A stretch of 64,000 nt of DNA from an archaeon (GCA_018671245.1 JABHIB010000008.1:111756-175755), one strand, 5' to 3'. Shown: positions 3,625-46,622, numbered from the stretch's first letter. The notes: generated by a model not told the origin, from the sequence alone. A program made the numbers and translations.

Positions 3625-4119
3625 TTAGACATTCTCTGAGATATTTTTTATTAGTAAAGATGCAATTAATAGTATGAAGAATGCACCAATAACTCTTGGA
3701 TGAAAAATTGTTCTAAATACATTACTAGTTCCTTCTGCAGCATAAGGTGTAAAAACTGGGCCGAATACTTTTGTTATACTCACAATTAAAGCAATTATCA
3801 TAACAATAAATATAGTAGTCTGTCCTCCAACTTTAGGCCATACATCTTTCTCATTGACACCAAAAAACATAAACAAGGTAAATAATAACAATAAGAAAAA
3901 CATCAAAAATATATACCAAGGTAAAACTGCTAAAATTAATTCTGTGGAACTACCAGAAAACATAGATATTACTGCAATACATAAACTAACAAGAAAATTA
4001 AATCTACTACTATTTCCAAGAAGTTTAGTCTTTTCGAGAATAGCATATAAGAAAACGAATATTAAAACGAATACGAATAATGGTAAAAAATTATTTAACA
4101 TAAACATATCTGTTGCCAT
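3625..4119 (-). CDS. polytopic membrane protein, member of a tandem three-paralog family
   Basis: Four to five predicted TM helices. Shares the N-terminal motif (F/L)LP(L/F)F(V/L)xxIFxxLxxILEKT with the next two genes. Confidence 0.5.
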   Translation of the reverse strand: MATDMFMLNNFLPLFVFVLIFVFLYAILEKTKLLGNSSRFNFLVSLCIAVISMFSGSSTELILAVLPWYIFLMFFLLLLFTLFMFFGVNEKDVWPKVGGQTTIFIVMIIALIVSITKVFGPVFTPYAAEGTSNVFRTIFHPRVIGAFFILLIASLLIKNISENV

Positions 4120-4200
4120 TTTCTATAATAAAACTATTTTCTTTTCTTTATAATATTATCTAAATTTGAATAATTAACACAACGGCAACTATTAGAATTA

Positions 4201-4752
4201 TTAAAATCCGCTAGTAGAACTCTTCCTAACATAATAGATTAGTCCAACTACAAGTGCTAAACCTGTAAATGCAACATAAGTATCAGTACCAATATAAAAC
4301 CAATTAGAGAAACCAAACATACTTCCATATTGATAAGGTACTAATGACCACATTGCTGCAAGTATTGCAATAATTGCTGCGGCAGTAAGTGGAAGATTTT
4401 GATGAGATCCACTCAATAGTCCAACTGCAAGCATACATACCAAAGCAAGTACCATTACAAGTCCCATTTTAGAAACATAATTATTAATTATTCCAACTAT
4501 CTCAGTATTTGCTATAACTATCAAAGATAATACTAGTGAAAAAACCATATTCATATCAGTTTTAGGATATTTAACCTCAATATGAGCAGGAGGAGGAGTA
4601 GGATTTGGTTGCATCTCAGTCTTTTTAACTCCAAGTATGAATGTTTTCTCAAGAACAGAAAAAATGATAATGAAAATTAATAAGAAAGGTAAAAGGTATT
4701 CGAACATTCCTGAACTTTGTAATTGATAATAAATTTGATGGAAATTAACCAT
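4201..4752 (-). CDS. polytopic membrane protein, paralog
   Basis: MFEYLLPFLLIFIIIFSVLEKT N-terminal motif shared with 4753-5313 and 3625-4119. Five hydrophobic segments. Confidence 0.5.
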   Translation of the reverse strand: MVNFHQIYYQLQSSGMFEYLLPFLLIFIIIFSVLEKTFILGVKKTEMQPNPTPPPAHIEVKYPKTDMNMVFSLVLSLIVIANTEIVGIINNYVSKMGLVMVLALVCMLAVGLLSGSHQNLPLTAAAIIAILAAMWSLVPYQYGSMFGFSNWFYIGTDTYVAFTGLALVVGLIYYVRKSSTSGF

Positions 4753-5313
4753 TTAGCTACCACCTTCTCCAGGACTAGCAGAATCTCTTACAACAAGATA
4801 AATAGTCCCGACAACTATTAATAAAAATACCATAGGGGCTATAACTGATGTACCAATTGCCCCGCCAATCCATGAAAAGAATCTATCAAGTATACTAACA
4901 CCATCAATACCTATAGCACTAGCAAATATGAATACAGTTCCTAGAAACATTAAAAATAAAACAAACATGAACCATTTTTTAGATTTTTCAGCTAAATCAA
5001 ACTCTCCAGTTTTTAAAAACATACCAACAAGTAATAAAAATGAAATTGAAACAACTCCCAAAAGAACTATATTTGGTAAAGCCTCATTAATAACACTAAC
5101 AACTTGATTCGTTGCCACAGTTATCAAAGCCATGACAAGAGCGACAATTGCATTTAGGTTTTTCTTTGTTCCAGAATTTCCCTCTTTTCCAAGAATCATA
5201 GTCTTTTCTAAAACTGCGAAAACAATTGCAAAAACCAGTAAGAACGGAAGTACTACATCAAACATTCCAAAGTCCTTAAGGAATTCAATTGATTGTTGTA
5301 AAGTTGATACCAT
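4753..5313 (-). CDS. polytopic membrane protein, paralog
   Basis: MFDVVLPFLLVFAIVFAVLEKT motif. Five TM segments. Stop/start abuts 4201-4752. Confidence 0.5.
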   Translation of the reverse strand: MVSTLQQSIEFLKDFGMFDVVLPFLLVFAIVFAVLEKTMILGKEGNSGTKKNLNAIVALVMALITVATNQVVSVINEALPNIVLLGVVSISFLLLVGMFLKTGEFDLAEKSKKWFMFVLFLMFLGTVFIFASAIGIDGVSILDRFFSWIGGAIGTSVIAPMVFLLIVVGTIYLVVRDSASPGEGGS

Positions 5314-21191: not shown

Positions 21192-21500
21192 ATGAATCTA
21201 ACATTATTATTAATATCTTTACTAGCTACAATATTTGTTTTTGAATTTACAAAACATTTCATAACAAAAACTATGTTTAAAGTAGTTTTAATAACAGTAT
21301 TAGTATCGATAGTATTTTTTATTATGATAGAAGGATTATCTGATGATGATGAATTCAAAAATAGTAATGCTATTCTTAAAACAGGATCAGTAATAGTTGA
21401 TACTGTAAAAGATCAAGAAGTAATGGAAGATTTTTCAATAAAAGAGTTCTGGCCTATAAAGAAAATAAAAAATTTTTTCATTAATGAAGAAGAATGGTAA
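21192..21500 (+). CDS. small membrane protein; stop codon TAA lies inside the 9-bp direct repeat flanking the transposon
   Basis: 102 aa with 2 TM helices and an acidic C-terminus. The stop is at 21498-21500. Confidence 0.3.
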   Translation: MNLTLLLISLLATIFVFEFTKHFITKTMFKVVLITVLVSIVFFIMIEGLSDDDEFKNSNAILKTGSVIVDTVKDQEVMEDFSIKEFWPIKKIKNFFINEEEW

Positions 21501-21505
21501 TGTAG
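21497..21505. repeat. 9-bp direct repeat GTAATGTAG (left copy; putative target-site duplication)
   Basis: Identical 9-mer at 29229-29237. Each copy abuts the outer end of a terminal inverted repeat. Confidence 0.6.
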
Positions 21506-21530
21506 TTCATTGGTGCATTAAAGGTTGGTA
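21506..21530. repeat. left terminal inverted repeat TTCATTGGTGCATTAAAGGTTGGTA
   Basis: The reverse complement of 29204-29228 is TTCATTGGTGCATAAACGGTTGGTA, identical at 23 of 25 positions. Confidence 0.6.
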
Positions 21531-21582
21531 GAATAAATTGAGTTAATATAATCTATTCTTTGCTTATTTTTTATTGAAGAAA

Positions 21583-21792
21583 CTATGTCTTTCTTCCTTT
21601 AACTATTTTAATCTTATTCTTCAAACTAAGAATCTCTTTTTCTTTTCTAATTTTAACTCTAACCTTTTCTTTATCTTTCATAAGTTTTGCTTTTTCTTTC
21701 TCTAAATAATTCTCTGCCCTCTCAAGTTTTACTAAATCTTTCTCTAACTTTTTCAATTTGGGACTAGATAATTCCCTTTTTTCTGTTTTCAT
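21583..21792 (-). CDS. small lysine-rich coiled-coil protein (transposon cargo)
   Basis: 69 aa, all K/E/L heptads. Last gene of the cargo operon. Confidence 0.3.
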   Translation of the reverse strand: MKTEKRELSSPKLKKLEKDLVKLERAENYLEKEKAKLMKDKEKVRVKIRKEKEILSLKNKIKIVKGRKT

Positions 21793-21833
21793 CCTCTTTT
21801 TATATTTTTACAATGAATTCCTTACTTATATAC

Positions 21834-23216
21834 TTAACTCTCCAACTTTTCTAAAATATTCTCATCAACAATCACAATATGTCCAATGCTTTTAACATTC
21901 TTGTATTTAACAATAATTCCCTTAGTTTTAAGATTTTGTTTTTTATCTAATCTAATTCTTAAACTATCAATCTTATTTTCTCCCAAGAGAACTTCATCAA
22001 CCTTTCCAATATAATTCCCTTCCCCACAATAAACTTCCCTTTTAATCAAACCTTTGATGCTATTCTTAGGATGTTTATTTATTCTATTAATTTCAATTTT
22101 TTCTATAATCTTTTTTTTATAAACAAAAGCCATTAATCCAAACAATCCGATTATTAGAAGAAATCCGAGAACATTCCAATTGTTATTAACTATACTTGAG
22201 CCACCAACAACAAAACCAGTCATAGTATTTCTTCCGATAAACAAAATTCCTACTAACATAAATCCAACAAGAATTATTAAGAAAGTTTTACCCTTAATTC
22301 TTTTCAAATTTTTCTTAATCTTGCTTTTGTATTCCTTATGTGTCTTTGGCTTTCCTACTTTTTTCTTTATTATTTTAAATTTAGATTTAAATAATCTAAT
22401 GATTAGCAAAATCAATAATACTGCAACTACACCTATAATTCCATAAACCAAATACATCCAATTAAAATTTTTTACAGGGAGTAAAGCACATTCTTCTTGA
22501 GATAAAACTTCAAAGGTTTCTCCTGCAACAGCAGTTTTATTCCCACTATAAGCAATTTCAGCATATAACCTGTATGTTCCTTGAGAAGCTGAATCTGGAA
22601 CTTTTAGTTCTATGTTGAAGCTTGTTTCTTTTTCAACAGCTCTTGTGTCCTTGTATTCAGTAATTAATTTATTATTTTTATCAATAATCCAATAAGTCAT
22701 AAAAGCATCAAGAAGTTCTACTTTAGCATAATTTTCCAATTTTACATTTGCTTTAATCTTTTTTCCAGAACAAATCTCTTTATATCCATCTTCTAAATTT
22801 AAATAAATATCAAATAAAGGTTCTGATGGGCCAAGATATTCACAAATTTGTGTTTGATTTGGCATTCCTTTTGTTCCAGTGCAATCTCCTTTATTTGCAC
22901 AAATTCTTTCTTGTATCCCTGATTCTGGGCAGATAGATGGAAACCACTCTGTACATTGCCAGTCATAAGTACACTTGCTTCCTCCAGAACTTCCTCCTCC
23001 AGGATTTGGAGTTGTGGGACAAGCTCCGCAATCTCCTGGGCAAGTTGAACAGCTTTCTCCATTATTGCAAATTCCATCTCCGCAATATAAAGACGGTGTT
23101 GAAATTTCAGAGTAATTTCCAGAACCATAAATCCCTTCTCCATAGTTACCTGCAGAAACTAATGGAATTAGAACTAATATTAATGCAAAAAAAATAAGTT
23201 TTTTTTTGATTATCAT
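21834..23216 (-). CDS. signal-peptide, Cys-rich extracellular domain, TM, C-terminal PRC-barrel-like protein
   Basis: Signal peptide MIIKKKLIFFALILVLIPLVSA and Cys cluster CGDGICNNGESCSTCPGDCGACP. TM helices near residues 255-275 and 300-360. The C-terminal 70 aa (YCGEGNYIGKVDEVLLGENKIDSLRIRL...IVIVDENIL) resemble a PRC barrel. Confidence 0.45.
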   Translation of the reverse strand: MIIKKKLIFFALILVLIPLVSAGNYGEGIYGSGNYSEISTPSLYCGDGICNNGESCSTCPGDCGACPTTPNPGGGSSGGSKCTYDWQCTEWFPSICPESGIQERICANKGDCTGTKGMPNQTQICEYLGPSEPLFDIYLNLEDGYKEICSGKKIKANVKLENYAKVELLDAFMTYWIIDKNNKLITEYKDTRAVEKETSFNIELKVPDSASQGTYRLYAEIAYSGNKTAVAGETFEVLSQEECALLPVKNFNWMYLVYGIIGVVAVLLILLIIRLFKSKFKIIKKKVGKPKTHKEYKSKIKKNLKRIKGKTFLIILVGFMLVGILFIGRNTMTGFVVGGSSIVNNNWNVLGFLLIIGLFGLMAFVYKKKIIEKIEINRINKHPKNSIKGLIKREVYCGEGNYIGKVDEVLLGENKIDSLRIRLDKKQNLKTKGIIVKYKNVKSIGHIVIVDENILEKLES

Positions 23217-25642
23217 CTTATACTCCCTCCTGGATTAATTACAAATTTACATCCATCTTCTTTATAAATTTCCCAATGAGAACTAGTAAAACTCATATTC
23301 GCATTCCAAGTTAGAGTTCCAGAACCAGTAATTGTAATATTATTTGGGACTATAAAATTAGTATCCCAAACACAATTATCAGAACATGTAATTGCCCAGT
23401 TTCCAGAATCTGGGGCTGTGCAAGTATTGAGAGCTATTGTGATTTTTCTTGTCTTAGTAATATTTAAATTTCCCCCGGTATCAATTGCATAAGCAGTATA
23501 ATTATAATTTCCAAGATTTAAATCTGTGAAATTGTTATGTAAATTATATAATCCATTATCATAAGAGGCGTTGATCTCTTCTGGACTTAATGCTCTTGAA
23601 TATATTTTGACTTCATCAATATCTCCCTTAAATAAATAACCTGCACTATTTCCTGATGCTCCTATTCTTGTAACTGCAGCACCCTTGGTTGCGGTTAATG
23701 CCTTAAAATTAGCAGAAGTTAAAGGATAATCCATTATTTCTACACCATTTACATAAACTGTTGCGGTTGTTCCATCCCAAGAGTTAACAACATGATACCA
23801 TGTATCTAATTCTGCAACAATACTTGTACCTCCAGATTGATAAGTCGGTCCACTAGCACCTGCACCTATTGTTGCAGTTATGTGGTGTGAAGTTGCTTCT
23901 AACCCAATAAAAAAAACAGAACTACCAACACTGGTTCCATCATTTCTATGAAGTGGGGTTCGCCATCCACTAGGTAAGTCTGCTGTTCGTCTTATCCAAG
24001 CTTCAACAGTCATAGCATCATAATTTCCATCAGCAGTACTTCCAAGATTAATATAATCGTCTACCCCATCGAATTCCAAAGAATATCCATATTTTCCAGT
24101 TACTAAACTTTCTTCTCCAAAATCCGCCCCAGTAAAAATTCCAAAATTATCATAACTTGAATTATCATAAACACCTGATGCATTTGTATTTTCAAAATTC
24201 CAATATCCTAACAAAGAATAATTCCAATCAAAAAATGCTGAAGTATCTAATCCGTCTGTTATTGTTGTATTTAAATAAACAAAATTTTCACTTTTTGTAT
24301 CTCCATCTGTAGGTGTGGGAGGTTCCCAAATTACTACTGGAGGATCTTGATCCACAATTGTTAAATCACTTGAATTTCCCCATTCACTATATGCTCCATC
24401 ATATAATCTCATACCACATTTCCAGACATCCCCTGAACTAGTATTTCCAGAATCTAAAACTGCATTAAATTCATAATTATTAGGATAACTTTCATTATAA
24501 TCAACAGTTAAATTCAAAACACCATCTTTATACCATCTTACTGTAACATTCATAGCATCTTCATCAATATCTAAGAGTGTATCATAACAATTTAAATCTT
24601 GATTATTTAAATTACTTCCATCAGTTGAATTAATTTCAGGAGTTGGTGTCTCTGGAGGGCCACTTACAGCAACAGTAACATTTCTTGAATCTATATTTAA
24701 ATTACCTTCTTCATCCAGAACATAAGCAGAATAATTATAAATTCCATTTTCAAGAGAAGAAAAATTATGATAAAGTCTATTTGCAGTATTATTATATAAT
24801 GCACCAATTTCTTCTGCACTTAATGCACGTTCCACAATCAATACTTCATCTACCTTACCTTTATATTGATAATTAGCACCATTACTGGATGCACCAATTC
24901 TTGTGGGAGTTGTTAAAGTATTATATGTTGCTAAAGCATATTCTTTGTTATATTCACCATTTAGATAAACTACAACATCAGTCCCATTCCAAACAGCAGC
25001 TATGTGCCACCATTCCCCATAAGTTGCAAGTTGTGTAGTTCTTCCTGCATACCAACCACCAGGGGCACCTGAATTAGCTCCAATAGTAGCAGTTAATAAA
25101 TTATCATTACTAACACCTAACCAATATGAACTTGAACCAATCGTTGTCGAAGTTGCATGATGTAAAGCACATTCATAAGAAGGGCCATCAGCAGTTTTGT
25201 AAAGCCAAGAAGCAATCGTAAGTTCGGTAGGATTACTAACAACAACATTATCTGTTTTAATATAGTCATTCACTCCATCAAATTCTAAAGCATTTCCATA
25301 TTTTCCGGTGGTTATATTTGAAGTAGTTGGTCCTCTTCCACCAAAAGTCATGAAGTTATCATAACTTGAATTATCAAAAACTCCTGTTGAATTTGTATTT
25401 TCAAAATTCCAATATCCTAACAAAGAATAATCCCAGTCAAAAAAAGCAGAAGTTTCATTATCATCGGTTATAGTTGTATTAAGATAAACCCAAGCATTTT
25501 CAGTTATATCTCCATCTGGAGGGGTTGGGGGTTCCCAAGTTATAGTTGGAGTATCAGCACTAACTAAAGCCAGAGAAAAACTAAATAATAAAAATATAAA
25601 AAAGGTTAAAATTATCTTTTTTTTTAATAATCTTTGTTTCAT
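23213..25642 (-). CDS. secreted protein with two tandem LamG/ConA-like lectin-type domains (internal duplication)
   Basis: Signal peptide. Two about 400-aa repeats each begin (T/V)(I/V)TWEPPTPxDGD...YLNTTITD...SAFFDW(D/N)YSLLGYWNFENTN. They contain LEFDGV(N/D)DYI...WYHxxxxWNGT...VYxNGE blocks characteristic of the LamG/pentraxin fold. Many N-x-S/T sequons. Confidence 0.6.
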   Translation of the reverse strand: MKQRLLKKKIILTFFIFLLFSFSLALVSADTPTITWEPPTPPDGDITENAWVYLNTTITDDNETSAFFDWDYSLLGYWNFENTNSTGVFDNSSYDNFMTFGGRGPTTSNITTGKYGNALEFDGVNDYIKTDNVVVSNPTELTIASWLYKTADGPSYECALHHATSTTIGSSSYWLGVSNDNLLTATIGANSGAPGGWYAGRTTQLATYGEWWHIAAVWNGTDVVVYLNGEYNKEYALATYNTLTTPTRIGASSNGANYQYKGKVDEVLIVERALSAEEIGALYNNTANRLYHNFSSLENGIYNYSAYVLDEEGNLNIDSRNVTVAVSGPPETPTPEINSTDGSNLNNQDLNCYDTLLDIDEDAMNVTVRWYKDGVLNLTVDYNESYPNNYEFNAVLDSGNTSSGDVWKCGMRLYDGAYSEWGNSSDLTIVDQDPPVVIWEPPTPTDGDTKSENFVYLNTTITDGLDTSAFFDWNYSLLGYWNFENTNASGVYDNSSYDNFGIFTGADFGEESLVTGKYGYSLEFDGVDDYINLGSTADGNYDAMTVEAWIRRTADLPSGWRTPLHRNDGTSVGSSVFFIGLEATSHHITATIGAGASGPTYQSGGTSIVAELDTWYHVVNSWDGTTATVYVNGVEIMDYPLTSANFKALTATKGAAVTRIGASGNSAGYLFKGDIDEVKIYSRALSPEEINASYDNGLYNLHNNFTDLNLGNYNYTAYAIDTGGNLNITKTRKITIALNTCTAPDSGNWAITCSDNCVWDTNFIVPNNITITGSGTLTWNANMSFTSSHWEIYKEDGCKFVINPGGSIR

Positions 25643-25643
25643 T

Positions 25644-27554
25644 TTAACTCTGGATTATTATTCCACTCCCATTATGATACATTTTAGCTGAGCAGTCTGC
25701 GGTGAAACAAAAAGTATCTGTTGTTGTAATATTTCCAGTTGCATTAATATCCCCCGCAACATCTAAATTTCCAGTCATAGCATCTCCACTAACATTAACA
25801 AATGCATTATCAGCATCACTTGCGGTTATGGCATTTTCCACACACCCAGTTATTTCAGAACACTCATCTTGTCCTGCAAGAGCACTATCGATTTCTGATT
25901 CTGTATAAAATAAACTTGTTAACCAACTCACCAAAATACTCAAAGTTCCATCATTATTCTCCATTTGAGTTTCATTAATAGTATTCAGGTTATCCCAATA
26001 ATCTGATGAATTAACATTTAAATCAGATTCCTCACCATCATCTATCCAATCATCTTGATTAATATCCATATAAAGTGTATCAGCTAATGATTGATTCCAA
26101 CTTGAGTTATCTCCTGTAACACTTATGCTTGCATACAAAGTGTCAGCATAAGTTTTGTTCCAATCATCTCCATAATTCACCGGAGCATAATTGTCATCAA
26201 GCAAAGTTGTCAAATCTGATTCTTCATCATAAAATATTGTTCTTGCATAACTTTCATTCCAGGATGAATTATCTCCTGCAACTCCAGAAATCTGATTATC
26301 AACATAATCTTTCATTGAATCATTAAAGATAACATCTTGTGTATCTGCATAAGCATTAGCTGGAATTGTTTGGTTGTAAGCCCAAGTGTCATAAGTTGCA
26401 TTGTATGTTGAAAGCCAGCTAGCTTCTTGTGAAGTTATATAATCAAACACAGGTGTAGATTGATTGTAATCCCATTCAATTCCTGCATAAAGTGTATCAG
26501 CTAATGATTGATTCCAACTTGAGTTATCTCCTGTAACACTTATGCTTGCATACAAAGTGTCAGCATAAGTTTTGTTCCAATCATCTCCATAATTCACCGG
26601 AGCATATAAAGTGTCTGTCAAAGATTGATTAAAAGAGGAGTTTCCTCCAGAAATTCCATCAATCCTTGTGCTCAAAGAAGAATTAACTGAATTAATTAAA
26701 TCTGTTTCATTATAATTATCTGCTATATTATCAATTGTATTATTTAACTTAGTTTCATTAAAGTAAATGGTGGTGGTATCATTATATAAATAATTTCCAT
26801 CTGCTGTTTTTTGTGTGTCTATTCCTCCCCCCCAACGAGAATCCCCTGTGTTGTTAAATATCTCATCCCATATTGTTGGAATTTCTGGTTTGTTTGTCAA
26901 GTCATTATAATCTTTATCCCATGCAGAATAAATAGGATCAGATTCACTTGTTAAATAACTCTGCAAATCACTTATCTGCGATTCTTCAATTGTAACATTG
27001 CTCCAGTCATCTGAATAAACTTTTGAAGCATAAATATTAGTAACATACAAATTCGCCCATTTTAACAATGAACTTCCTAAATTAAATAAATTATTAATCT
27101 CTGGAAGAAAAGAGCCATTTAAATATTGATTAGTTACAGTCGCATTAAGATAGCTTCCGATTAAAGATAAATTACCATTGATTATTACATTTCCATCAAT
27201 TGTTCCCCCTTCATCTTTGTCAAGATAATTAGCATCATTTGTGAACTTGCTGATTGTAACTTCTGTTAGATCTATCTTGCTTGAATTAATAGAATCATCA
27301 GCTAAATCTTCGGCACTAAGAGTTCCATCTAAAATATGGGAAGTATTTATGGAGGAAGAATAAATATTTGTCCCGTTCACCATTGTTTCATTTAATTTAA
27401 CTCCATCACTACCTGCAATTTTTGATAAAAAATCATTAAGGACCGTTCCCCAATCATTTTCATCTCCTCCTATAGTTGGAAGACGAGATGCGGATACCAA
27501 ACTCATCATCAATAAAATAAATATTCCAATTAAAAATAATTTACTTGCCCTCAT
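25644..27554 (-). CDS. secreted sequon-rich surface (S-layer-like) protein with internal near-identical repeat
   Basis: Signal peptide MRASKLFLIGIFILLMMSLVSA and more than 30 N-x-S/T sequons. The peptide block LTDTLYAPVNYGDDWNKTYADTLYASISVTGDNSSWNQSLADTLY occurs twice, encoded by about 120-bp identical DNA copies at 26068-26188 and 26486-26606. Confidence 0.5.
   Translation of the reverse strand: MRASKLFLIGIFILLMMSLVSASRLPTIGGDENDWGTVLNDFLSKIAGSDGVKLNETMVNGTNIYSSSINTSHILDGTLSAEDLADDSINSSKIDLTEVTISKFTNDANYLDKDEGGTIDGNVIINGNLSLIGSYLNATVTNQYLNGSFLPEINNLFNLGSSLLKWANLYVTNIYASKVYSDDWSNVTIEESQISDLQSYLTSESDPIYSAWDKDYNDLTNKPEIPTIWDEIFNNTGDSRWGGGIDTQKTADGNYLYNDTTTIYFNETKLNNTIDNIADNYNETDLINSVNSSLSTRIDGISGGNSSFNQSLTDTLYAPVNYGDDWNKTYADTLYASISVTGDNSSWNQSLADTLYAGIEWDYNQSTPVFDYITSQEASWLSTYNATYDTWAYNQTIPANAYADTQDVIFNDSMKDYVDNQISGVAGDNSSWNESYARTIFYDEESDLTTLLDDNYAPVNYGDDWNKTYADTLYASISVTGDNSSWNQSLADTLYMDINQDDWIDDGEESDLNVNSSDYWDNLNTINETQMENNDGTLSILVSWLTSLFYTESEIDSALAGQDECSEITGCVENAITASDADNAFVNVSGDAMTGNLDVAGDINATGNITTTDTFCFTADCSAKMYHNGSGIIIQS
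26068..26606. repeat. two about 120-bp identical direct repeats (period about 418 bp) inside the surface-protein gene
   Basis: cataaagtgtatcagctaatgattgattccaacttgagttatctcctgtaacacttatgcttgcatacaaagtgtcagcataagttttgttccaatcatctccataattcaccggagcata is present at both positions. Confidence 0.7.
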
Positions 27555-27723
27555 TTTTACTTCCCTCTTTTTTTACTGCAAGCCAATTCATCACAATAGC
27601 ACGAACAATCTCCGCATCACTCTCACCAAAGATATCTTGATATTCTCTCATAATTTCCATTTGTTTTTTAGTGAATGTTACCTGAACTTTTACAACTTCT
27701 TTCTTCTCTATCTTAGTTCCCAT
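27541..27723 (-). CDS. small ribbon-helix-helix-like protein, first gene overlapping the cargo operon
   Basis: 60 aa. A beta-strand segment VKVQVTFTKKQ is followed by two helices (MEIMREYQDIF, AEIVRAIVMNWL), the CopG/Arc-type arrangement. Its stop overlaps the start of 25644-27554 by 14 nt. Confidence 0.35.
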   Translation of the reverse strand: MGTKIEKKEVVKVQVTFTKKQMEIMREYQDIFGESDAEIVRAIVMNWLAVKKEGSKNEGK

Positions 27724-27897
27724 ACATAGAGGAATGTTTTAAGAGTATTTAAAGATTTCTATTATAATCTAATTAGAATGTTATTAGAATATATTAAGAT
27801 GTCTCAGAAATTTGACTGGCTCCGAAATCTGCTCCGCTTGATTTCTCCGCTAAAAAATCTATTAATGTAAAAAGAATTCTTAAGTTGGAGGTCAATT

Positions 27898-28038
27898 ATT
27901 ACTTCTTCTTGGGTTTATTCCAGTATGGGCTTTTACACTTAGGGCAAATAATTGGCTTTTCCTTTTTATTTCTTGGTGCCCATTCATGTCCACATCTCTC
28001 ACATTTGTAACCCTTAATCTTAATTGTTATTTCTGCCA
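27898..28038 (-). CDS. unannotated 46-aa zinc-ribbon protein with lysine tail
   Basis: Reverse complement reads MAEITIKIKGYKCERCGHEWAPRNKKEKPIICPKCKSPYWNKPKKK. The CxxC...CPxC pattern is the same as in the C-terminus of 38142-38543. Below the ORF-track length cutoff. Confidence 0.35.
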
Positions 28039-28213
28039 TAATTAGAATTAGGATAATGTATATATAAATCTTACCTTTTAGGGTATTACCTATATAGTAA
28101 TAACTTTATAGCCGAAACATTTAAATAGTTTACTTACCTTAATAAGTTATACCTAATTAGGTAAATATAAAGAGGGCTCCGAAGAGCCCTAGATTCCATC
28201 CAACGCAAATCAA

Positions 28214-29140
28214 ATGAAATCTAACAATGTAAAAAAGAGCAAGTATAAAAAACTTTCTTGTCCTAATTGCAAATCAAAAAATATAATCAAATGGACAAAA
28301 AGAAAAACAGAAAATAGAGGATTAATTCAGAGATATAAATGCAATGATTGTGATAAAACATTTACAATAAATGATGGTTTCTTTAGAATGAGAAATCATC
28401 CCAAAAAAATAACTTGTGCTTTAGATTTATTTTATAGAGGAGTTTCAACAAGAAAAGTTCAAGAACATTTTAAGGCATTTTATCCTCATAATGCAGATCA
28501 TACTTCTGTTTTAAGATGGCTTAGAAAATATTCAATAATGATTTCAAAATTCACAGATAATCTTTATCTTAATATCGGACAAGAAATTCAAATTGATGAG
28601 ATGGAATATCACAGAAGGAAATTCTATAATAAAAAGGGTGTAGATAAAAATTGGTTCATTGATTGTATTGATAGTAGAACAAGATTTATGATTTCTTCTG
28701 AATATGTTAAAGCAAGAGAACAAAAAGAACTAAAATTTGTTTTATCAAAAGCAAAACAAAAAACAGGGGAGCAAGTTAAGATTGTAACTTCTGATGGACT
28801 TCTTGCTTATCCAAATGCTATTAAGAAAGTTTATGGATTTTCAAATAAAACTCATAAACTTAATGTTTATCATAATCAGGTTAATGCTTCAAAAGGTGAA
28901 GGGTTTAACATCATGATTGAAAGATTGCACAATTCAATAAGAGAAAGAACTAAAACTTTTAGAGGTTTTCATGGTTCTGTTGAAAGTGCAAATGCAATAA
29001 TGAAGGGTTATGAAATATTCTATAACTTCATAAGAAAACATCAGTCAATCAAAAGATGTCCTTATGAACTTGCTATCCCAAAATTGAAACTTAATTCTGA
29101 AAATAAATGGATGGAGTTGATTAAAATGGCAAACGAATAA
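28214..29140 (+). CDS. IS6-family transposase (DDE) with N-terminal zinc-ribbon extension
   Basis: N-terminal CPNCKS...CNDCDK zinc ribbon. HTH block GVSTRKVQEHF...DHTSVLRWLRKY aligns with IS26 TnpA (GISYRELQEML...DHSTIYRWVQRY). DDE blocks IQIDEMEY...W.IDSRTR, VTSDGLLAYPNAI and IERLHNSIRERTK match IS26 HMDETYV, TDKAPAY and IECDHGKLKR. Confidence 0.85.
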   Translation: MKSNNVKKSKYKKLSCPNCKSKNIIKWTKRKTENRGLIQRYKCNDCDKTFTINDGFFRMRNHPKKITCALDLFYRGVSTRKVQEHFKAFYPHNADHTSVLRWLRKYSIMISKFTDNLYLNIGQEIQIDEMEYHRRKFYNKKGVDKNWFIDCIDSRTRFMISSEYVKAREQKELKFVLSKAKQKTGEQVKIVTSDGLLAYPNAIKKVYGFSNKTHKLNVYHNQVNASKGEGFNIMIERLHNSIRERTKTFRGFHGSVESANAIMKGYEIFYNFIRKHQSIKRCPYELAIPKLKLNSENKWMELIKMANE

Positions 29141-29203
29141 TAAAATAAAAAACCCACAATGGAAACTTCGGTTAAAATTTCAAAGATGGAATTATATTGA
29201 AAT

Positions 29204-29228
29204 TACCAACCGTTTATGCACCAATGAA
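29204..29228. repeat. right terminal inverted repeat TACCAACCGTTTATGCACCAATGAA
   Basis: Reverse-complementary to 21506-21530 (23/25). Followed by the 9-bp direct repeat at 29229-29237. Confidence 0.6.
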
Positions 29229-29237
29229 GTAATGTAG
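29229..29237. repeat. 9-bp direct repeat GTAATGTAG (right copy)
   Basis: Exact copy of 21497-21505. Confidence 0.6.
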
Positions 29238-40624: not shown

Positions 40625-43600
40625 ATGGTGAAAAAAATAAAATTTTCTTTAACTATGTTGCTAGCATTTATCGTTATTTTTTCTGCAATCAATTCTGATA
40701 CTGTAGAAGCTAGACCTGTTACAAAAGAGTGGACAAATGTATATTGTGGAAAAGAAAGTTGCGGTTTCGATAGTTGCGAATCTAATGAGATGTGTCAAAT
40801 AAGACAGCGAGAGCTCTTTCCAAATATCTTTCCGGTAATTCACCCTTCCGGAGAGGGACCTCTGAAAGCTCCAATAAATTCACCAATTAAAATAAGAAGT
40901 GTTGCAGAAACACCTTCAATTTCACCAACCTCAGAATTTAGAAAAGATGAAACTCGAAGTTTTTTTGAAAAAACTAAACAGTGGTTATCTATTCAATCAA
41001 GATGTACTCCTTCTAATTTATGTGTTAATTCCTGTGATGATGGGATAGATAATGATGGAGATAGAAATTTTGATTCAAAAACAATACAAAATTTTGCAGC
41101 AGAAGGAATTTCAGTTAGTAGACAAGAATCTGCATGTGATTCAAAAGTTCAAGATCAAAGAACAGGTGAAAGTAATTGCATGCTTTATTTCACTGAGAAT
41201 ATGAATAATCCGAACTTCATAGCAGAAGGTATTGGGCTATGTAATACAGAAAGTACAAGTGGATTGAAAGCAATATTGAGACCTTATACAGAAAATTGTG
41301 ATCCAAATTTTAACAGAGTATCAATTTCAAATCTCGAACATATGGTTGATGGTGCAGTATTAGATAACAATGAACTTTGTGGATCATATTTTGATTGGTG
41401 CTGTGTTGACCTTGGAAGCGATGTCTATGATCCCAGTGGCACATTAGGTAGTGTAAATAATTTCAGATATCTTGGAGACGGACTTTGCCAAGGATGGTTA
41501 GATGATGAAGACCCTATGCAAGTTTGTAGGGGAGAGTATAATGCTAATCCTAGTACTAACTGTACACTCGACGTTGATGGTGGTTGGACAATATGGAACT
41601 CAGAACTATACTATAATTCTCTTTGGACAGATTCCTCAGGGACACCTCAATCTGACTGTCTTTTGACTGAAGTTGATTGTGATTGGACTGTATGGCCATT
41701 TGGTGCAGCAGAAAACTGTGAATCTGGAGATACTGCAGAAATTCCTGAAGTGGGTTTGGTAGTAATTGATTGGGAAGAAGGGTCAACCTGTTCATATGGT
41801 CAACACACAAGACAGTGTTCATCAGGTAGTTATACTTGGAGTGAATGGGGTACTTGTGATGGTGCTGTTCCTGGAGAGTATGCCCAAGAACTATCTTGTA
41901 ATGATGGCGAAGATAATGATTGTGATGGATTAATTGATAGTTACGATGATGATTGTGGAATCTGTACAGTAGGAGCTGCAATAACTCAATCTTGTGGATA
42001 TAATGCTATAGGGATTTGTACTATCGGAACAGAAAATGCAGACTGTGAGTATAATGCTGGAACAGGATTATGGGAATTCAATGATTGGCACAGTTGCGAT
42101 GCAATAATGCCAACTACAGAAGATTGTAATGATGCGAGTTTATTAGATGAAGATTGTGATGGGACTTCAAATAGTGGAGATACTGAATGTGGAACCTGTA
42201 CAGAAGGGGATGCAATAACTCAATCTTGTGGATATAATGCTATAGGGATTTGTACTATCGGAACAGAAAATGCAGACTGTGAGTATAGTGGTGGGCAATG
42301 GAACTTTGGAGATTGGCACAGTTGCGATGCAATAATGCCAACTACAGAAGATTGTAATGATGGTGAAGATAATGATTGTGATGGATTCATAGATAGTGAT
42401 GAATTAAATAATCCTGATGAGACTAATGAATGTGGTGAATGTATAAGCTCTTCTCAAGACACACAAGCATGTGGTTATGATTATAATGGGGAATCTGGAG
42501 GAATAAATTATGGAATAGGTGAATGTACTGAAGGTACAACTTACTCTGATTGTGAATTTGTTGCAAATCTTTGGCAATGGTCAGAATTTCATAATGGTTT
42601 AGGTATATCTGATAATCCTACAACTTTATTAGTAAATGAAGGTTGTGGGGGATCATATTTGGGACCAGAAGAAGAATACTGTGATGACGGTTTAGATCAA
42701 AACTGTAATGAAGAAGCAGATGAAGGATGTTATGATTCTTTTAGAACATTCTTTGTTACAAATCCTTTAGATTTCCAGAACTATGATCTAGCTGAAGAAA
42801 GTTCAATAGCTTTTGATTCAACTATGGTAAATGAAGATGGTACAGGTTCTGCAATAATGGTTTACAGATCAGGAACAATAAATAAGGCCTTAAATTTTGC
42901 AAAATATGTTGGTCCTGCTGCTGCAACTTATGAGATGCCTGGTTCTGGAAGTTGTGGATATAATGAATTTGGTCAAAGGTTAGGTACATTTGAATGTTCA
43001 ATAGTGGATGGATCGGATGATACTGATGGGGATGAAAATTCAATTGTTATAGATACAACTGGAAAGATACATGTTACATACACTCATAAATCAACAGGAA
43101 ATATAGGTATAAAATATGCCTCCTCTATCGATGATGGACAAACTTGGACAATATCTGTTGTAGATCCTTCAGTGATGGGAACAGATTATGCCTATCCTGA
43201 GATATTTTTAGTTGGAAACATACCTCATATGATTTATACTAGAGTTTCTAAAAACACTCCTGTACCATTTGGAGAAACAGATGAAGTTTATCACGCTTGG
43301 TTAGAGGGTACTACTTGGAATAAGGAAACTATTGCAAGTGCGCCAACTTATTATGGTATGTATCCTGGTGACATGTATAGGTCCTCAGTAGATTATGATT
43401 CGACAACAGATACAATTCATGTGATCTATAAATCTCATGAATGCACCCTACCAAACTGTCCAAGGAATATATTCTACACACAAAAAGTAGGAGCTGGAAC
43501 TTGGAGCAATCCTCAGAATATCCTAACAGTCAATGACGAAATATATAGGACCAGATTATCAATAAAAGTTGGAGGGGACGGAAACCTACACATAGTACAC

Positions 43601-43975
43601 CCTCATAAAGATGTATCTGGAGATATAAGGTCTCTAAAATATGCAACCTCTACAAACGGTGGTACTTCTTGGACATACGAAGATTTGAGTACTTGTGCAG
43701 CTTACAACCCTCAATTAACTATAACTGTGGAAGGGTTACCAAGATTAACGGCATGGTCTTGGGCATGTGGTGGAGATGACTATGATCAATGGTTCTTTTA
43801 CTATCTTTCAGAATCTGGATGGAATTCAGAGAGAGTAGAAGAAGGAACAAACACTGCATTATTTAATGGAGAAACTGGATCAATAACAATTGATAATACA
43901 AATAAGGTCCATACAAGTTATTTGTTTACTTCCAATGTTGGTGTAGATACCTTAAGATATGCACATATATTATAG
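40625..43975 (+). CDS. giant secreted cysteine-rich repeat protein with C-terminal BNR/Asp-box beta-propeller
   Basis: Sec signal MVKKIKFSLTMLLAFIVIFSAINSDTVEA. Repeated CxDGxDNDCDG(L/F)ID motifs (CNDGEDNDCDGLIDSYDDDC, CNDGEDNDCDGFIDSDE, CDDGIDNDGD). Asp-box motifs SIDDGQTW and STNGGTSW. Blade-like strands IHVTYTH, IHVIYKSH and LHIVHPH in the last 350 aa. Confidence 0.6.
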   Translation: MVKKIKFSLTMLLAFIVIFSAINSDTVEARPVTKEWTNVYCGKESCGFDSCESNEMCQIRQRELFPNIFPVIHPSGEGPLKAPINSPIKIRSVAETPSISPTSEFRKDETRSFFEKTKQWLSIQSRCTPSNLCVNSCDDGIDNDGDRNFDSKTIQNFAAEGISVSRQESACDSKVQDQRTGESNCMLYFTENMNNPNFIAEGIGLCNTESTSGLKAILRPYTENCDPNFNRVSISNLEHMVDGAVLDNNELCGSYFDWCCVDLGSDVYDPSGTLGSVNNFRYLGDGLCQGWLDDEDPMQVCRGEYNANPSTNCTLDVDGGWTIWNSELYYNSLWTDSSGTPQSDCLLTEVDCDWTVWPFGAAENCESGDTAEIPEVGLVVIDWEEGSTCSYGQHTRQCSSGSYTWSEWGTCDGAVPGEYAQELSCNDGEDNDCDGLIDSYDDDCGICTVGAAITQSCGYNAIGICTIGTENADCEYNAGTGLWEFNDWHSCDAIMPTTEDCNDASLLDEDCDGTSNSGDTECGTCTEGDAITQSCGYNAIGICTIGTENADCEYSGGQWNFGDWHSCDAIMPTTEDCNDGEDNDCDGFIDSDELNNPDETNECGECISSSQDTQACGYDYNGESGGINYGIGECTEGTTYSDCEFVANLWQWSEFHNGLGISDNPTTLLVNEGCGGSYLGPEEEYCDDGLDQNCNEEADEGCYDSFRTFFVTNPLDFQNYDLAEESSIAFDSTMVNEDGTGSAIMVYRSGTINKALNFAKYVGPAAATYEMPGSGSCGYNEFGQRLGTFECSIVDGSDDTDGDENSIVIDTTGKIHVTYTHKSTGNIGIKYASSIDDGQTWTISVVDPSVMGTDYAYPEIFLVGNIPHMIYTRVSKNTPVPFGETDEVYHAWLEGTTWNKETIASAPTYYGMYPGDMYRSSVDYDSTTDTIHVIYKSHECTLPNCPRNIFYTQKVGAGTWSNPQNILTVNDEIYRTRLSIKVGGDGNLHIVHPHKDVSGDIRSLKYATSTNGGTSWTYEDLSTCAAYNPQLTITVEGLPRLTAWSWACGGDDYDQWFFYYLSESGWNSERVEEGTNTALFNGETGSITIDNTNKVHTSYLFTSNVGVDTLRYAHIL
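41963..42430 (+). repeat. tandem 234-bp (78-aa) duplication inside the giant secreted-protein gene with about 120 bp of 100% identity
   Basis: gcaataactcaatcttgtggatataatgctatagggatttgtactatcggaacagaaaatgcagactgtgagtata and agttgcgatgcaataatgccaactacagaagattgtaatgatg are identical between copies starting at 41963 and 42197. Confidence 0.7.
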
Positions 43976-44005
43976 GATCTAACCACTTTTTATTTATTAT
44001 AGGAT

Positions 44006-45394
44006 ATGAATATGAAACATGAAAATATCAAAAAATACCTTTTCATAAGCTCACTAATAATCATGTTACTTCTTTTAAATTTTAATTCTATCCATTTTTC
44101 TAAAACTAGGGATATGAGTGAGCCTGTTTGGATAGAACAAGGTTGCGGACTAACTGTTTGCGGAATGAATTCTTGTGGGCATGATGAAATGTGCCAATCA
44201 TCAATCTCAGAAAAAATTCCTGACTATCAAATCTATCTTCCTCCTCAAATCCCTCTCTCTCCATTGAAAGTAGAAAAAGTTTCGACTAGTAAAATTGTTC
44301 CAGATTATTTAGAGCCAAGATCTTTTTTTGTTGATAGAAAATATAGGTGTCATCAAACTCTTGATTGTATAGATACTTGCAATGATGAGGTAGATAATGA
44401 TGCAGATGCAATGGAAGATTCTTCGGATCCCAGCTGTTCAGGTACAAAAGGTTCGGATAGGACTGCTCCTAGAGCTTGTCGAACTCTCTTCGACGGCAGA
44501 ATTTCAGATCCAGACTTCATAGCAGAAGGTTCTGGTCAATGTCTTGATGATTTTAATCAAGAATCCTGTTTAGCACTAAATATTGGGAATGAAAAATGGA
44601 CAGATATAATAAATTTGGAGTATTTGCATGCGGGTGGAGCATTAAATAATAATGGTCTTTGTAATAGTTGGTTCACAAGTTGCTGTGTACAAATAAAAGA
44701 TGAAGGTGGTCAACCTACTCCTATATATAATCCTACAGGAACTATATACAGTGAAGCGGATGAAAATTATATTGATCATTTCAAATACTGTGGAGACAGT
44801 TATTGTCAAGGGTGGAATGCAGTTCAAACAATAAAGCTTCCTGACTGGTTTATTGAATCTGGAACTATTTTTATGGGCGAAACTTTTAATTCGTGTCACT
44901 GGACTAATATTGCAGGAACTCCTGATGATTCTTCTGATGATTTTGTTGAATCTGATTGCAACATAGAACCCTATAGTTGCACTGTAACTGATAATCCTGA
45001 AGGGATGCTACAATACTTTCCTCCAATAGGGAATCTATATCTAAGCAATATTACAAATGCTCATGTAGCGACTTCAGCAGGAAGTTATGATTACAGAGTC
45101 TATTGTTCTTATGCATACTATTTCATGTCTTCTTCTCAGGAATTTGATTTTTTAAGAATAGAATCGACTGGAGAAAATGCCCATATCGAGTCTACAGATC
45201 ATTCAAGTTATGGATATACAGATTACAAAATAAACACAGAAGGGGATTGTTTTGTTTATGATCAACCAGGTGATTGCCCTGCAGATACGGAAACTCAATC
45301 ATTCTGCGTGATCGCACTATCTGATGTAACAAATGCCCATGTGGCAGATTGTTCAGAAGAAACATATGACTATAAATTATGTTGTAACTATTAA
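44006..45394 (+). CDS. secreted cysteine-rich protein, paralog of the N-terminal module of 40625-43975
   Basis: Sec signal. Shares ordered motifs CG..CG...SCG.DEMCQ, RSFF, C..C(N/D)D..DND.D and FIAEG.G.C with the preceding gene. The C-terminus has three TNAH(V/I) repeats. Confidence 0.5.
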   Translation: MNMKHENIKKYLFISSLIIMLLLLNFNSIHFSKTRDMSEPVWIEQGCGLTVCGMNSCGHDEMCQSSISEKIPDYQIYLPPQIPLSPLKVEKVSTSKIVPDYLEPRSFFVDRKYRCHQTLDCIDTCNDEVDNDADAMEDSSDPSCSGTKGSDRTAPRACRTLFDGRISDPDFIAEGSGQCLDDFNQESCLALNIGNEKWTDIINLEYLHAGGALNNNGLCNSWFTSCCVQIKDEGGQPTPIYNPTGTIYSEADENYIDHFKYCGDSYCQGWNAVQTIKLPDWFIESGTIFMGETFNSCHWTNIAGTPDDSSDDFVESDCNIEPYSCTVTDNPEGMLQYFPPIGNLYLSNITNAHVATSAGSYDYRVYCSYAYYFMSSSQEFDFLRIESTGENAHIESTDHSSYGYTDYKINTEGDCFVYDQPGDCPADTETQSFCVIALSDVTNAHVADCSEETYDYKLCCNY

Positions 45395-45440
45395 TATTCA
45401 TTAGAAAATTATTTAAACAAAAGAAACGAATTTAGAAACA

Positions 45441-46622
45441 ATGAAAAAAAGAGGTATATCTCCACTAATAGCTACAGTTCTGATAGTCGGGTTTACTATA
45501 CTCCTAGCAGTAATAATTATTTCTTTTATAGGTTCTGAAGCAGATTCACAAATTAATCAAACTCAAACCACCATAAATATTCATACCACTAATTTAGATT
45601 TTGATTTTGAATGTACAAATATAATCAATGTAACAAGTGGTGAAAATAATACAGAACTCTTAGTAATAAATGATTATAATGGTAATTTGGATTCAGTTGT
45701 TATATTATTTGGAGATGGATCAATATATCATAATGCTGTTAACCTCTCTGCCTTTGAAAATAAATTAATAAATTATACAAACATTTCTAGCTCAGAAATT
45801 GAGATTATTCCTCAAGTTATTATTGATGGAGTTTTACAAGGTTTAGAGTGGGAAGCGAAAACAAAAACTTGTTCAGAGAGTATTCTACTCTCTACTCCAA
45901 AATGTAATGATACTATAGATAATGATGATGATGGATATGGCGATGAGGATGATCCTGACTGTTTAGATCCTCTAACTGGAGTATATAATTCTAGTTTAGA
46001 TAATGAGTGGATAACAAGGTCATGTGATAGCTGTGCTGATTGTGAAAGTGATATGAAAACTCCATCACTTTGGTCAAGTTATGATACTAATGAAGTAGTT
46101 TTGATGAATGATGATTCAGTTGAGAATGCTTGTATTACTCTAACTATAAATGAAAGTAATTCTGTAATAAATTGTAATGGAAAAACTATCTCTGATGGGA
46201 CAGTAGGACTAAATCTATTAGGAACTACAAATGTAACTGTAAAGAATTGTTCAATCAATGATTTTGAAAGTGGCGCTATAATGGTGACTGGCGCAATAGA
46301 TACTACACTAGAGGATATAATAATAATTGACAATATTGCAGGGTTAACTTCTCAGATTCTAGTATCTAATAATCCTGGCGGATATTTAAAATTAAATAAT
46401 ATTGAATCCCTAAACTCTTACCCTATATTAATTTGGTTTAGTTCTCTCGGATCAATAACTAATCTAGAACTAACAAATGTGAACTCCTGTACTGCTACAT
46501 ACTCTGATTTATTATGCTCTAGTCCTATAGATCCAACTATCTTAACTGCTGATACATCAAACTATTTTGCAGACATAGGTACTTGCGGACTTACAGCAGG
46601 CGAACATTATACTACATGCTAA
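45441..46622 (+). CDS. class III (type IV pilin-like) signal peptide protein with parallel beta-helix-like domain
   Basis: MKKRGISPLIATVLIVGFTILLAVIII is the archaeal prepilin-type N-terminus (KRG|ISPLIATVLL), processed by PibD/FlaK-type peptidases. The C-terminal NCNGKTISDG...VKNCSINDFESGAIMVTGAIDTTLEDIIIIDN resembles right-handed beta-helix repeats. Confidence 0.65.
   Translation: MKKRGISPLIATVLIVGFTILLAVIIISFIGSEADSQINQTQTTINIHTTNLDFDFECTNIINVTSGENNTELLVINDYNGNLDSVVILFGDGSIYHNAVNLSAFENKLINYTNISSSEIEIIPQVIIDGVLQGLEWEAKTKTCSESILLSTPKCNDTIDNDDDGYGDEDDPDCLDPLTGVYNSSLDNEWITRSCDSCADCESDMKTPSLWSSYDTNEVVLMNDDSVENACITLTINESNSVINCNGKTISDGTVGLNLLGTTNVTVKNCSINDFESGAIMVTGAIDTTLEDIIIIDNIAGLTSQILVSNNPGGYLKLNNIESLNSYPILIWFSSLGSITNLELTNVNSCTATYSDLLCSSPIDPTILTADTSNYFADIGTCGLTAGEHYTTC

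Follow-up and report, generated by a model that had tools for sequence, protein, structure and literature searches.

A surface-protein operon carried by a DDE transposon of DPANN archaea: cassette exchange and a predicted role in host attachment

DPANN archaea live attached to other cells, and their host recognition is poorly understood, LamG proteins being suspected of a part in it from annotation. These proteins are expanded in DPANN genomes, have been proposed as mediators of host attachment and are in some cases encoded on genomic islands (PMC5498576, PMC7414124, PMC11310336), as are some LamG genes of Mia14 (PMC5498576, PMC7414124). Here we describe, within a 64,000-nucleotide stretch of archaeal DNA (GCA_018671245.1 JABHIB010000008.1:111756-175755; this whole stretch is referred to as the window), a five-gene operon for surface proteins which is carried by a transposon with a single DDE transposase and whose largest product is a double-LamG protein of 809 amino acids (aa). 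This protein resembles the known LamG/ConA-like surface proteins of DPANN archaea (the arCOG07813 type; Mia14, Undinarchaeota, Nanohaloarchaeota) in its secreted LamG jelly-roll and in the proposed function in attachment. Unlike these, its gene is the cargo of a defined transposon, it is built of two tandem modules with exchangeable cores, and its operon is a fixed one that also encodes a repeat protein and a membrane protein with a PRC barrel.

Cargo-carrying transposons with a single transposase have rarely been documented in archaea. Insertion sequences (IS) of the IS1 family have inverted repeats of ~23 bp and 9-bp target duplications, and the entries of ISfinder include long IS1-group elements that carry passenger genes, the archaeal ISMhu11 group being an example of such a "transporter IS" (tIS). 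Elements of the IS6 family measure 0.7-0.9 kb (at most 1.76 kb), have ~14-bp inverted repeats and make 8-bp duplications; some of their transposases possess an N-terminal zinc finger, and their cargo moves as a pseudo-compound transposon with two IS copies, one passenger-carrying member being known (PMC7986276).

The window DNA is archaeal and of low GC content (~30%), encoding Orc1/Cdc6, PolD, LonB, a family-B DNA polymerase, Cdc48 and an archaeal pilin. Contigs identical to it are found in metagenomes of marine oxygen-minimum zones (e.g., Saanich Inlet), and relatives of its genes occur in metagenome-assembled genomes (MAGs) of Pacearchaeota, Woesearchaeota and Nanoarchaeota. As judged from sequence, the host of the element is a low-GC DPANN archaeon of the Pacearchaeota/Woesearchaeota type. 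The parts of the transposon are, in window coordinates:

21506-29228: whole transposon, 7,723 bp, with 25-nt terminal inverted repeats and a 9-bp target duplication
21497-21505: left target-site duplication, GTAATGTAG, overlapping the stop codon of a flanking 102-aa open reading frame (ORF)
29229-29237: right target-site duplication, GTAATGTAG, the same 9 nt as at 21497-21505, directly outside the terminal repeat
21506-21530: terminal inverted repeat at the cargo end, TTCATTGGTGCATTAAAGGTTGGTA; homology to contig L014 ends exactly here
29204-29228: terminal inverted repeat at the transposase end, complementary to 21506-21530 at 23 of 25 nt
28214-29140, plus strand: DDE transposase of 308 aa with an N-terminal zinc ribbon, IS1/IS6-like
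27899-28039, minus strand: zinc-ribbon protein of 46 aa, divergent from the transposase, with a weak precomputed Pfam match to Zn_ribbon_8
27541-27723, minus strand: 60-aa protein, first gene of the cargo operon, overlapping the start of the 636-aa gene; 86-100% conserved in contigs L014, L018 and L025
25644-27554, minus strand: secreted, acidic, sequon-dense repeat protein of 636 aa, of a DPANN-specific family, not LamG
23213-25642, minus strand: secreted double-LamG protein of 809 aa, in the variable adhesin slot
21834-23216, minus strand: membrane protein of 460 aa with a signal peptide and hydrophobic segments, an ectodomain that is Cys-rich and of beta-sandwich type, and a PRC barrel at the C-terminus
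21583-21792, minus strand: Lys/Glu-rich protein of 69 aa, last gene of the cargo operon; 72-100% conserved in L014, L018 and L025

Detection of inverted repeats returned a pair of 28 nt (21503-21530 with 29204-29231, 3 mismatches), of which the outermost 3 nt on each side are target duplication; zero matches were expected in shuffles. The five minus-strand genes, in the order 60-, 636-, 809-, 460- and 69-aa protein, form an operon in which start and stop codons overlap or abut. The 60-aa protein looks, by eye, like a ribbon-helix-helix DNA-binding protein.

Near-identical copies of the transposon lie at three genomic sites, of one genome or several. In addition to the window, these are contig L014, in which the same block sits between RFC genes and an HhH-GPD gene with CTGTTAGTT as its target duplication, and contig L164, a third context in which the transposase end adjoins the genes of the ribosomal proteins S19e and L31e. 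Between the window and L014, DNA homology extends exactly from repeat to repeat. The generic hallmarks of a DDE transposon are thereby all found, namely inverted repeats, a target duplication, an internal transposase and the same unit at different loci. Comparison of the copies confirms, at the level of sequence, that the surface-protein operon is transposon cargo and that the transposon has recently been active; carriage on a mobile element had already been proposed in a preliminary description of this DNA, and the terminal repeats, the 9-bp duplications and the three contexts bear it out. An ordinary 1.2-kb IS beside unrelated genes was considered and rejected, since no second inverted repeat occurs near the transposase start and homology to the other copies covers the full 7.7 kb. 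As a separate observation, positions 16000-22397 of L014 (a 100-kb DPANN contig), 2-8 kb away from the second copy of the transposon, contain a conjugation-like cluster which includes a NikA-like gene, an N6/N4 DNA methylase, a TrbC/type IV secretion system pilin and a TraC/VirB4-like ATPase.

Among the known families, the transposase is closest to IS6 and IS1. Its best transposase profile matches are to the IS240/IS6 DDE domain (Pfam DDE_Tnp_IS240, 32.7 bits, cut-off 27), and it resembles IS1 in an N-terminal zinc-binding domain of the IS1/IS1595 type, which also scores above its curated cut-off (NCBIfam NF050000, 33.2 bits, cut-off 28). The scores against the NCBIfam equivalogs are 65.4 bits for IS6 (cut-off 125) and, far below the cut-off of 100, 36.8 bits for IS1; some members of the transposase family are labelled "IS1/IS6 family transposase" by NCBI. 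The hallmarks of IS6, i.e., an 8-bp duplication, repeats of ~14 bp, small size and cargo between two direct IS copies, are not found in the window family, whose elements are 2.4-8.7 kb long, with repeats of 25 nt, duplications of 9 bp, one transposase and, inside their own ends, 1-6 passenger genes. Repeat and duplication lengths of the window element do agree with those of IS1. Unlike IS1, its transposase is a single unframeshifted ORF, and unlike both IS1 and tIS elements the family has an extra conserved gene for the 46-aa zinc-ribbon protein and multi-gene operon cargo of up to 7.5 kb. The element is best described as a tIS-like, passenger-carrying transposon with a single transposase, belonging, as judged by profiles and published descriptions, to an uncharacterised group.

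The family to which it belongs is large. Scans with the transposase found relatives in metagenomes (190) and in species-representative genomes (57 loci), and the family comprises at least 1,494 homologous 90% clusters. All 57 genome loci lie in MAGs of Pacearchaeota, Woesearchaeota or Nanoarchaeota, bar one marginal match (E=6e-4) in a bacterial MAG. Complete elements could be delimited at 24 of the retrieved loci; they are 2.4-8.7 kb long and have the common end consensus TaCATTGGTGcaTtAaaGGTTGGTA. Perfect 9-bp duplications flank 19 of the 24, a few of these 19 being the same element fetched twice, and the chance of a match at 9 of 9 positions is ~4e-6 per element. Inside their terminal repeats all 24 hold extra ORFs, from one to about seven, as a tIS does. 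Homologues of the 46-aa protein, with its CxxC...CxxC zinc ribbon, occur at 54-100% identity in 8 of 12 sister elements examined, regardless of cargo, and the transposition module probably includes this protein as a second component. Between its gene and that of the transposase, in the divergent intergenic region, lies a perfect GC-rich hairpin (GGGCTC-CGAA-GAGCCC, 28174-28189), 25 nt 5' of the transposase start codon; it may be a regulatory or binding site.

The cargo carried by sister elements is diverse:

surface operon: in the window, L014, L018 and L025
restriction-modification systems: MjaI-type, EcoRI-type, Dcm-type and type IIG
ABC transporter: Liv-type
aminoacyl-tRNA synthetases: three paralogues of the Trp/Tyr type
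NUDIX protein

In addition to its three class-I Trp/Tyr-type paralogues, the synthetase-bearing transposon (L023, 104-7990) encodes a protein of glycosyl transferase family 3 and, as judged by eye, alcohol-dehydrogenase-like and HAD-like proteins; it lacks a target duplication, perhaps after recombination between copies. A description of this transposon family was not found in the searchable, mostly non-subscription literature.

Outside one block, the transposon is nearly identical between the window and L014:

23267-26070: hypervariable block, comprising the C-terminal 142 aa of the 636-aa protein and the 809-aa gene in full

Upstream of this block in the sense of the operon, 26071-29228 (3,158 nt) shows 0 differences between the two copies, and on its other side 21506-23266 (1,761 nt) shows 4. 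Within the 2,804 nt of the block itself, 741 positions differ, and the core of the first LamG domain is unalignable. The upstream edge is sharp, the first difference falling at 26070, where the downstream copy of a 120-nt repeat in the 636-aa gene ends, and the other edge lies in the last codons of the 809-aa gene. For this pattern, replacement of the block by recombination is the sole possible source.

Exchange is also seen at the level of single domains within the 809-aa protein, the features of which are:

24806-25279, minus strand: LamG domain 1 (Pfam), aa 122-279; the core, ~aa 113-264, is a replaceable cassette with one sequon
23570-24070, minus strand: LamG domain 2 (Pfam), aa 525-691; the core, aa 516-675, has zero sequons
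24129-24280: intragenic repeat, module-2 copy, 82% identical over 152 nt to its partner at 25338-25489
25338-25489: intragenic repeat, module-1 copy, partner of 24129-24280

The first core shows 91% and 77% identity with its counterparts in the orthologues P0121 and P0123, but 24-27% with those in P0122 and P0124, although the flanks of these are 71-80% identical. The second core is of a type common to P0121 and P0122 and differs in P0123, P0124 and P0125. At least six core types exist, 19-44% identical to one another and distributed independently of the flanks (44-81%). The LamG cores thus behave as exchangeable cassettes, and their hypervariability and near freedom from sequons make them candidate ligand-binding surfaces. 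In the orthologue P0125 the two modules are 63-81% identical, i.e., they have undergone concerted evolution.

The assignment of the 809-aa protein to the LamG domains is well founded, the whole protein matching Laminin_G_3 (PF13385) with 156.6 bits (E=6.6e-46) and its halves, scored separately, with 81.2 bits (E=1e-22) and 93.2 bits (E=2e-26), at a cut-off of 27.6. An AlphaFold2 model (predicted local distance difference test score, pLDDT, 82.7) is all-beta, and Foldseek matches it to a trans-sialidase lectin domain, laminin LG, neurexin LNS and domain 4 of AbnA, the last with a target TM-score of 0.79 and a root-mean-square deviation of 3.2 Å. Profiles and predicted fold agree that the protein is a member of the Laminin_G_3/ConA-like lectin superfamily. 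At its C-terminus it has a domain of ~70 aa with Cys and Trp.

When aligned in register, the two halves of the gene are offset by 1209-1233 nt. Apart from the block listed above, which codes for the conserved ...TSAFFDW.YSLLGYWNFENTN... stretch that leads into each LamG domain and which BLAST lengthens to 205 nt at 83% identity, three more blocks are 78-81% identical, and the longest exact run common to both halves measures 41 nt (24182-24222 = 25391-25431). The preliminary description was right about the two LamG modules, which the Pfam matches and the model support, and too high in its estimate of their DNA identity, which it gave as 85-90% in place of 82-83% over 150-205 nt. Both modules are present in every orthologue down to 52% identity, with no single-module variant among them, and a codon test between the modules at conserved residues found 91 identical codons against 92.8 expected from codon usage; hence the internal duplication is old. 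The same test rejects a young duplication or recent gene conversion as the source of the 82% DNA identity, which is instead due to conserved residues (e.g., the ...LLGYWNFENTN... strand opening each LamG domain) and AT-biased codons.

The 636-aa protein, which had likewise been described as LamG-like, is not so, having zero matches in Pfam, NCBIfam, PHROG and the sequences of the PDB, and its family profile finds none in the PDB either. Scattered and inconsistent hits in a Pfam scan of 59 relatives (Tudor_RapA, BclA_C, etc.) were rejected as noise. Its family includes 303 homologues with listed lengths of 360 to ~1100 aa, and every one with a named source comes from a DPANN archaeon. The close relatives compared (441-784 aa) share a conserved N-terminal part of ~290 aa, followed by a middle part of short modules (GDNSSWN.S.ADTLYA, APVNYGDDWNKTYADTLY and others) that vary in number and order from one relative to the next, and by C-termini in alternative forms. 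The gene contains an exact repeat:

26070-26189: 120-nt exact repeat, downstream copy in gene orientation, aa 456-495
26487-26606: 120-nt exact repeat, upstream copy, aa 317-356

The two blocks are 100% identical and lie 417 nt apart (a size of 121 nt and a spacing of 418 had been given before), whereas their flanks are identical at the random level of 26-37%. Recombination between the two copies would give exactly the 497-aa form of the protein, a precise repeat-to-repeat deletion, which is found in L010 and L013, contigs that are otherwise identical to the window. This form is either a real deletion or an assembly collapse, the latter reading arising because both contigs were assembled by SPAdes at 3-4x coverage. 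Diverged relatives at 83-87% identity also have a shorter repeat region, P0003 with one copy of the block and P0006 with none.

Of the remaining operon genes, the one for the 460-aa protein begins within the end of the 809-aa gene, its start overlapping the stop codon of the latter, and residues 390-452 of the product match Pfam PRC. A homologue of 355 aa, to which it is 53% identical, holds the same operon position in contig L153, where the order is 636-like protein, LamG protein, 460-like protein and small protein and where the locus has neither a transposase gene nor a terminal repeat. Compared with this homologue (L153 13433-14500), the 460-aa protein (window 21834-23216) has an apparently duplicated transmembrane and linker segment, its residues 346-458 and 250-316 aligning to the same part of the 355-aa protein. 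The middle slot, occupied by the 809-aa protein in the window, holds three different proteins in sister elements, among them a Gly-rich protein of 1000 aa and a DUF2341+LamG protein. Two of the three clearly share the C-terminal domain of ~70 aa (51% identity, L025 with the window protein) and the third matches it weakly (19%), the proteins of L018 and L153 showing a weak pattern match.

The 636-, 809- and 460-aa proteins each begin with a basic n-region, followed by a hydrophobic core and a cleavage motif of the VSA type. Sequons (N-x-S/T) are enriched against shuffles, with 34 in the 636-aa protein (5.35 per 100 aa, z=6.2) and 26 in the 809-aa protein (3.2 per 100 aa, z=3.5), whereas the cytoplasmic proteins encoded in the window have 0.1-1.2, or about 0.5, per 100 aa. 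They are also conserved, as sites under purifying selection are: among five 809-aa orthologues with an overall identity of 55-74%, 65-92% of sequons are kept in the same column versus 38-56% of other Asn residues, and in the N-terminal 300 aa of the 636-aa relatives 79-100% are kept versus 48-67%. In the 809-aa protein they sit on the scaffold, and the LamG cores have one and zero, which fits an N-glycosylated scaffold with bare binding cores. Sec signals, dozens of sequons and probable N-glycosylation had all been put forward for the 636- and 809-aa proteins in the preliminary description, and these proposals agree with the motifs and with the enrichment and conservation in homologues. It had further proposed that the repeats provide for recombinational variation; such variation is real, the exchanged block having one edge at the 120-nt repeat, but in the 809-aa gene it comes from cassette exchange and not from the internal duplication, which is old. 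Support from profile searches for the LamG fold, and presence of the repeats in independent assemblies, on which that description had made its case depend, were both found, the former for the 809-aa protein and the latter in the contigs discussed below.

We consider it probable that the operon is the passenger load of an autonomous DDE transposon and encodes an exported, glycosylated complex, predicted to serve host attachment, which varies by cassette exchange. The 636-, 809- and 460-aa proteins would be exported by the Sec pathway and N-glycosylated on their scaffold parts, and the 460-aa protein would hold the 636- and 809-aa proteins, which lack an anchor of their own, at the membrane. There, the LamG cores may bind a ligand on the host cell or in its matrix. 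Homologous recombination would swap either single LamG cores or the adhesin block, made up of the 809-aa gene and the C-terminal part of the 636-aa protein. Conserved framework sequences, among them the 120-nt repeat, would serve as anchors, and transposition could then spread the operon. Several points weigh against this proposal. The three insertion contexts could belong to one genome or to several, and a search for an empty target site via the flanking 102-aa gene found none, all 24 of the 24 contigs read carrying the insertion, so that movement in the population of the window is deduced from the other copies. Gene order and conservation are the grounds on which the 460-aa protein is a predicted membrane anchor with a putatively cytoplasmic PRC barrel, and on which the C-terminal ~70-aa domain of the middle-slot protein is a candidate docking piece; likewise, Sec export and N-glycosylation of the three proteins at conserved scaffold sequons are predicted from sequence. 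The AlphaFold2 monomer model of the 636-aa protein, built with 59 relatives, is unusable at a pLDDT of 49. No AglB was present among the ORFs scanned in the 64-kb window. Furthermore, two signal-peptide proteins of the window without a Pfam match, of 1116 aa (40625-43975) and 462 aa (44006-45394), have 1 sequon each where shuffles expect 13.9 and 4.4, which is the opposite of the 636- and 809-aa proteins; dense glycosylation is therefore no general rule for the exported proteins of this organism.

In a different view of their origin, the 636-aa and LamG proteins would be a receptor-binding fibre set acquired from head-tail viruses of DPANN archaea, or exchanged with these, and might act on the cell as a decoy or in superinfection exclusion instead of as an adhesin of its own. 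Relatives of the 636-aa repeat region are indeed encoded on three IMG/VR contigs, and both of those examined (L155 and L156) have major-head-protein matches. L156 encodes a head-tail adaptor and a portal as well, and the gene of its repeat protein lies directly 3' of that of the adaptor. Modules of the 636-aa protein recur in the proteins of the virus contigs, at identities reaching 73% over 106 aa, the LamG part has a match (E=7e-27) to a PHROG whose annotation is virion structural protein, and LamG proteins have been reported on DPANN viruses (PMC11310336). We nevertheless regard this origin as unlikely, given that the window element contains no capsid, portal, terminase or integrase gene, that PHROG yields no match to the 636-aa protein, that the conserved N-terminal ~290 aa of its family are absent from the two viral proteins with recovered N-termini, and that the same operon stands in an ordinary chromosomal context with its membrane protein partner in L153. 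What the virus contigs do suggest is that DPANN cells and their viruses may draw on a common pool of modules, and that the 636-aa protein may be fibre-like and receptor-binding in character, assembled from modules common to virus proteins. With virus tail fibres and receptor-binding proteins it shares a conserved N-terminus, variable modules, alternative C-termini and modules found near head-tail adaptor genes; in contrast to them it has a signal peptide of the Sec type and is encoded in an operon of the cell, any trimeric fibre fold of it is hypothetical, and tail-fibre profiles gave zero PHROG or Pfam matches to it.

Another proposal, that these are general envelope glycoproteins of the S-layer type which came to lie on a transposon by chance and vary through relaxed constraint or immune-like evasion of viruses and not for ligand binding, has in its favour that the 636- and 809-aa proteins are acidic, poor in Lys/Arg, rich in Asn/Ser/Thr and sequon-dense, as is typical of archaeal surface glycoproteins, and that, among PDB sequences, the 809-aa protein matches the S-layer domain-containing 4qvs best (E=1e-6). 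Yet an essential wall component is not expected as transposon cargo at different loci, nor to be swapped for unrelated proteins in sister elements, and the LamG cores are selectively sequon-free and hypervariable, as binding surfaces would be, which makes the proposal improbable. Finally, it is very hard to maintain that the repeats and the 497-aa form are products of metagenome assembly and offer no biological substrate for recombination. The short form does occur in just the two low-coverage SPAdes contigs, 100% identical elsewhere, and contig L012 begins inside the 120-nt repeat. The two-copy form, however, is present in at least 18 independent contigs from several assemblers, among them MEGAHIT at k=141, which exceeds the length of the repeat, so that this form is not an assembly artefact; it also recurs in the diverged L014 and L164 copies, and P0003 and P0006 show that the region shortens naturally. 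None of these three explanations, virus fibre, envelope glycoprotein or assembly artefact, accounts for the whole set of observations as well as a transposon-borne, cassette-exchanging attachment operon does.

LamG surface proteins of DPANN archaea were already known, whereas the transposon family and the sharply bounded exchange of an adhesin cassette appear to be undescribed. The locus offers candidates for determinants of host attachment, in the form of a conserved three-part surface operon, a cassette-variable binding module, transposon mobility and a link to fibre-like proteins of viruses, together with a mechanism by which the specificity of attachment could spread and change. More tentatively, we propose as a possibility that autonomous cargo DDE transposons of an undescribed, abundant and DPANN-specific kind move genes among Pacearchaeota and Woesearchaeota, whose genomes are reduced, their loads being operons for host-interaction adhesins, restriction-modification systems, transporters and even aminoacyl-tRNA synthetases, with the adhesin block recombining and sharing modules with virus fibres. 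If this is true, the host range of the symbiont could be reprogrammed by a mobile, recombining locus. A large family carrying genes of defence, transport and translation would be a significant route of gene flow in genomes that are otherwise regarded as streamlined.

Some further observations concern the virus contigs and the remainder of the window. L155 (4707-8741) and L156 (7644-9254) each encode, in the fibre position of a head-tail virus contig, very large sequon-dense proteins that combine 636-type modules with a second repeat, FGYYNSSDF.I.DYFTK, which is absent from the window protein. The region 40625-46622 of the window is locally richer in GC (0.35-0.376 versus ~0.30) and includes, at 45441-46622, a pilin-like archaeal protein with a Pilin_N match and 11 sequons. 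At 171-2483 and 3625-5313, a T2SSE gene (type II/IV secretion ATPase) lies near the genes of three small proteins that have a hydrophobic segment at the N-terminus; the locus, which may be one for an archaeal type IV pilus, has no relation to the transposon.

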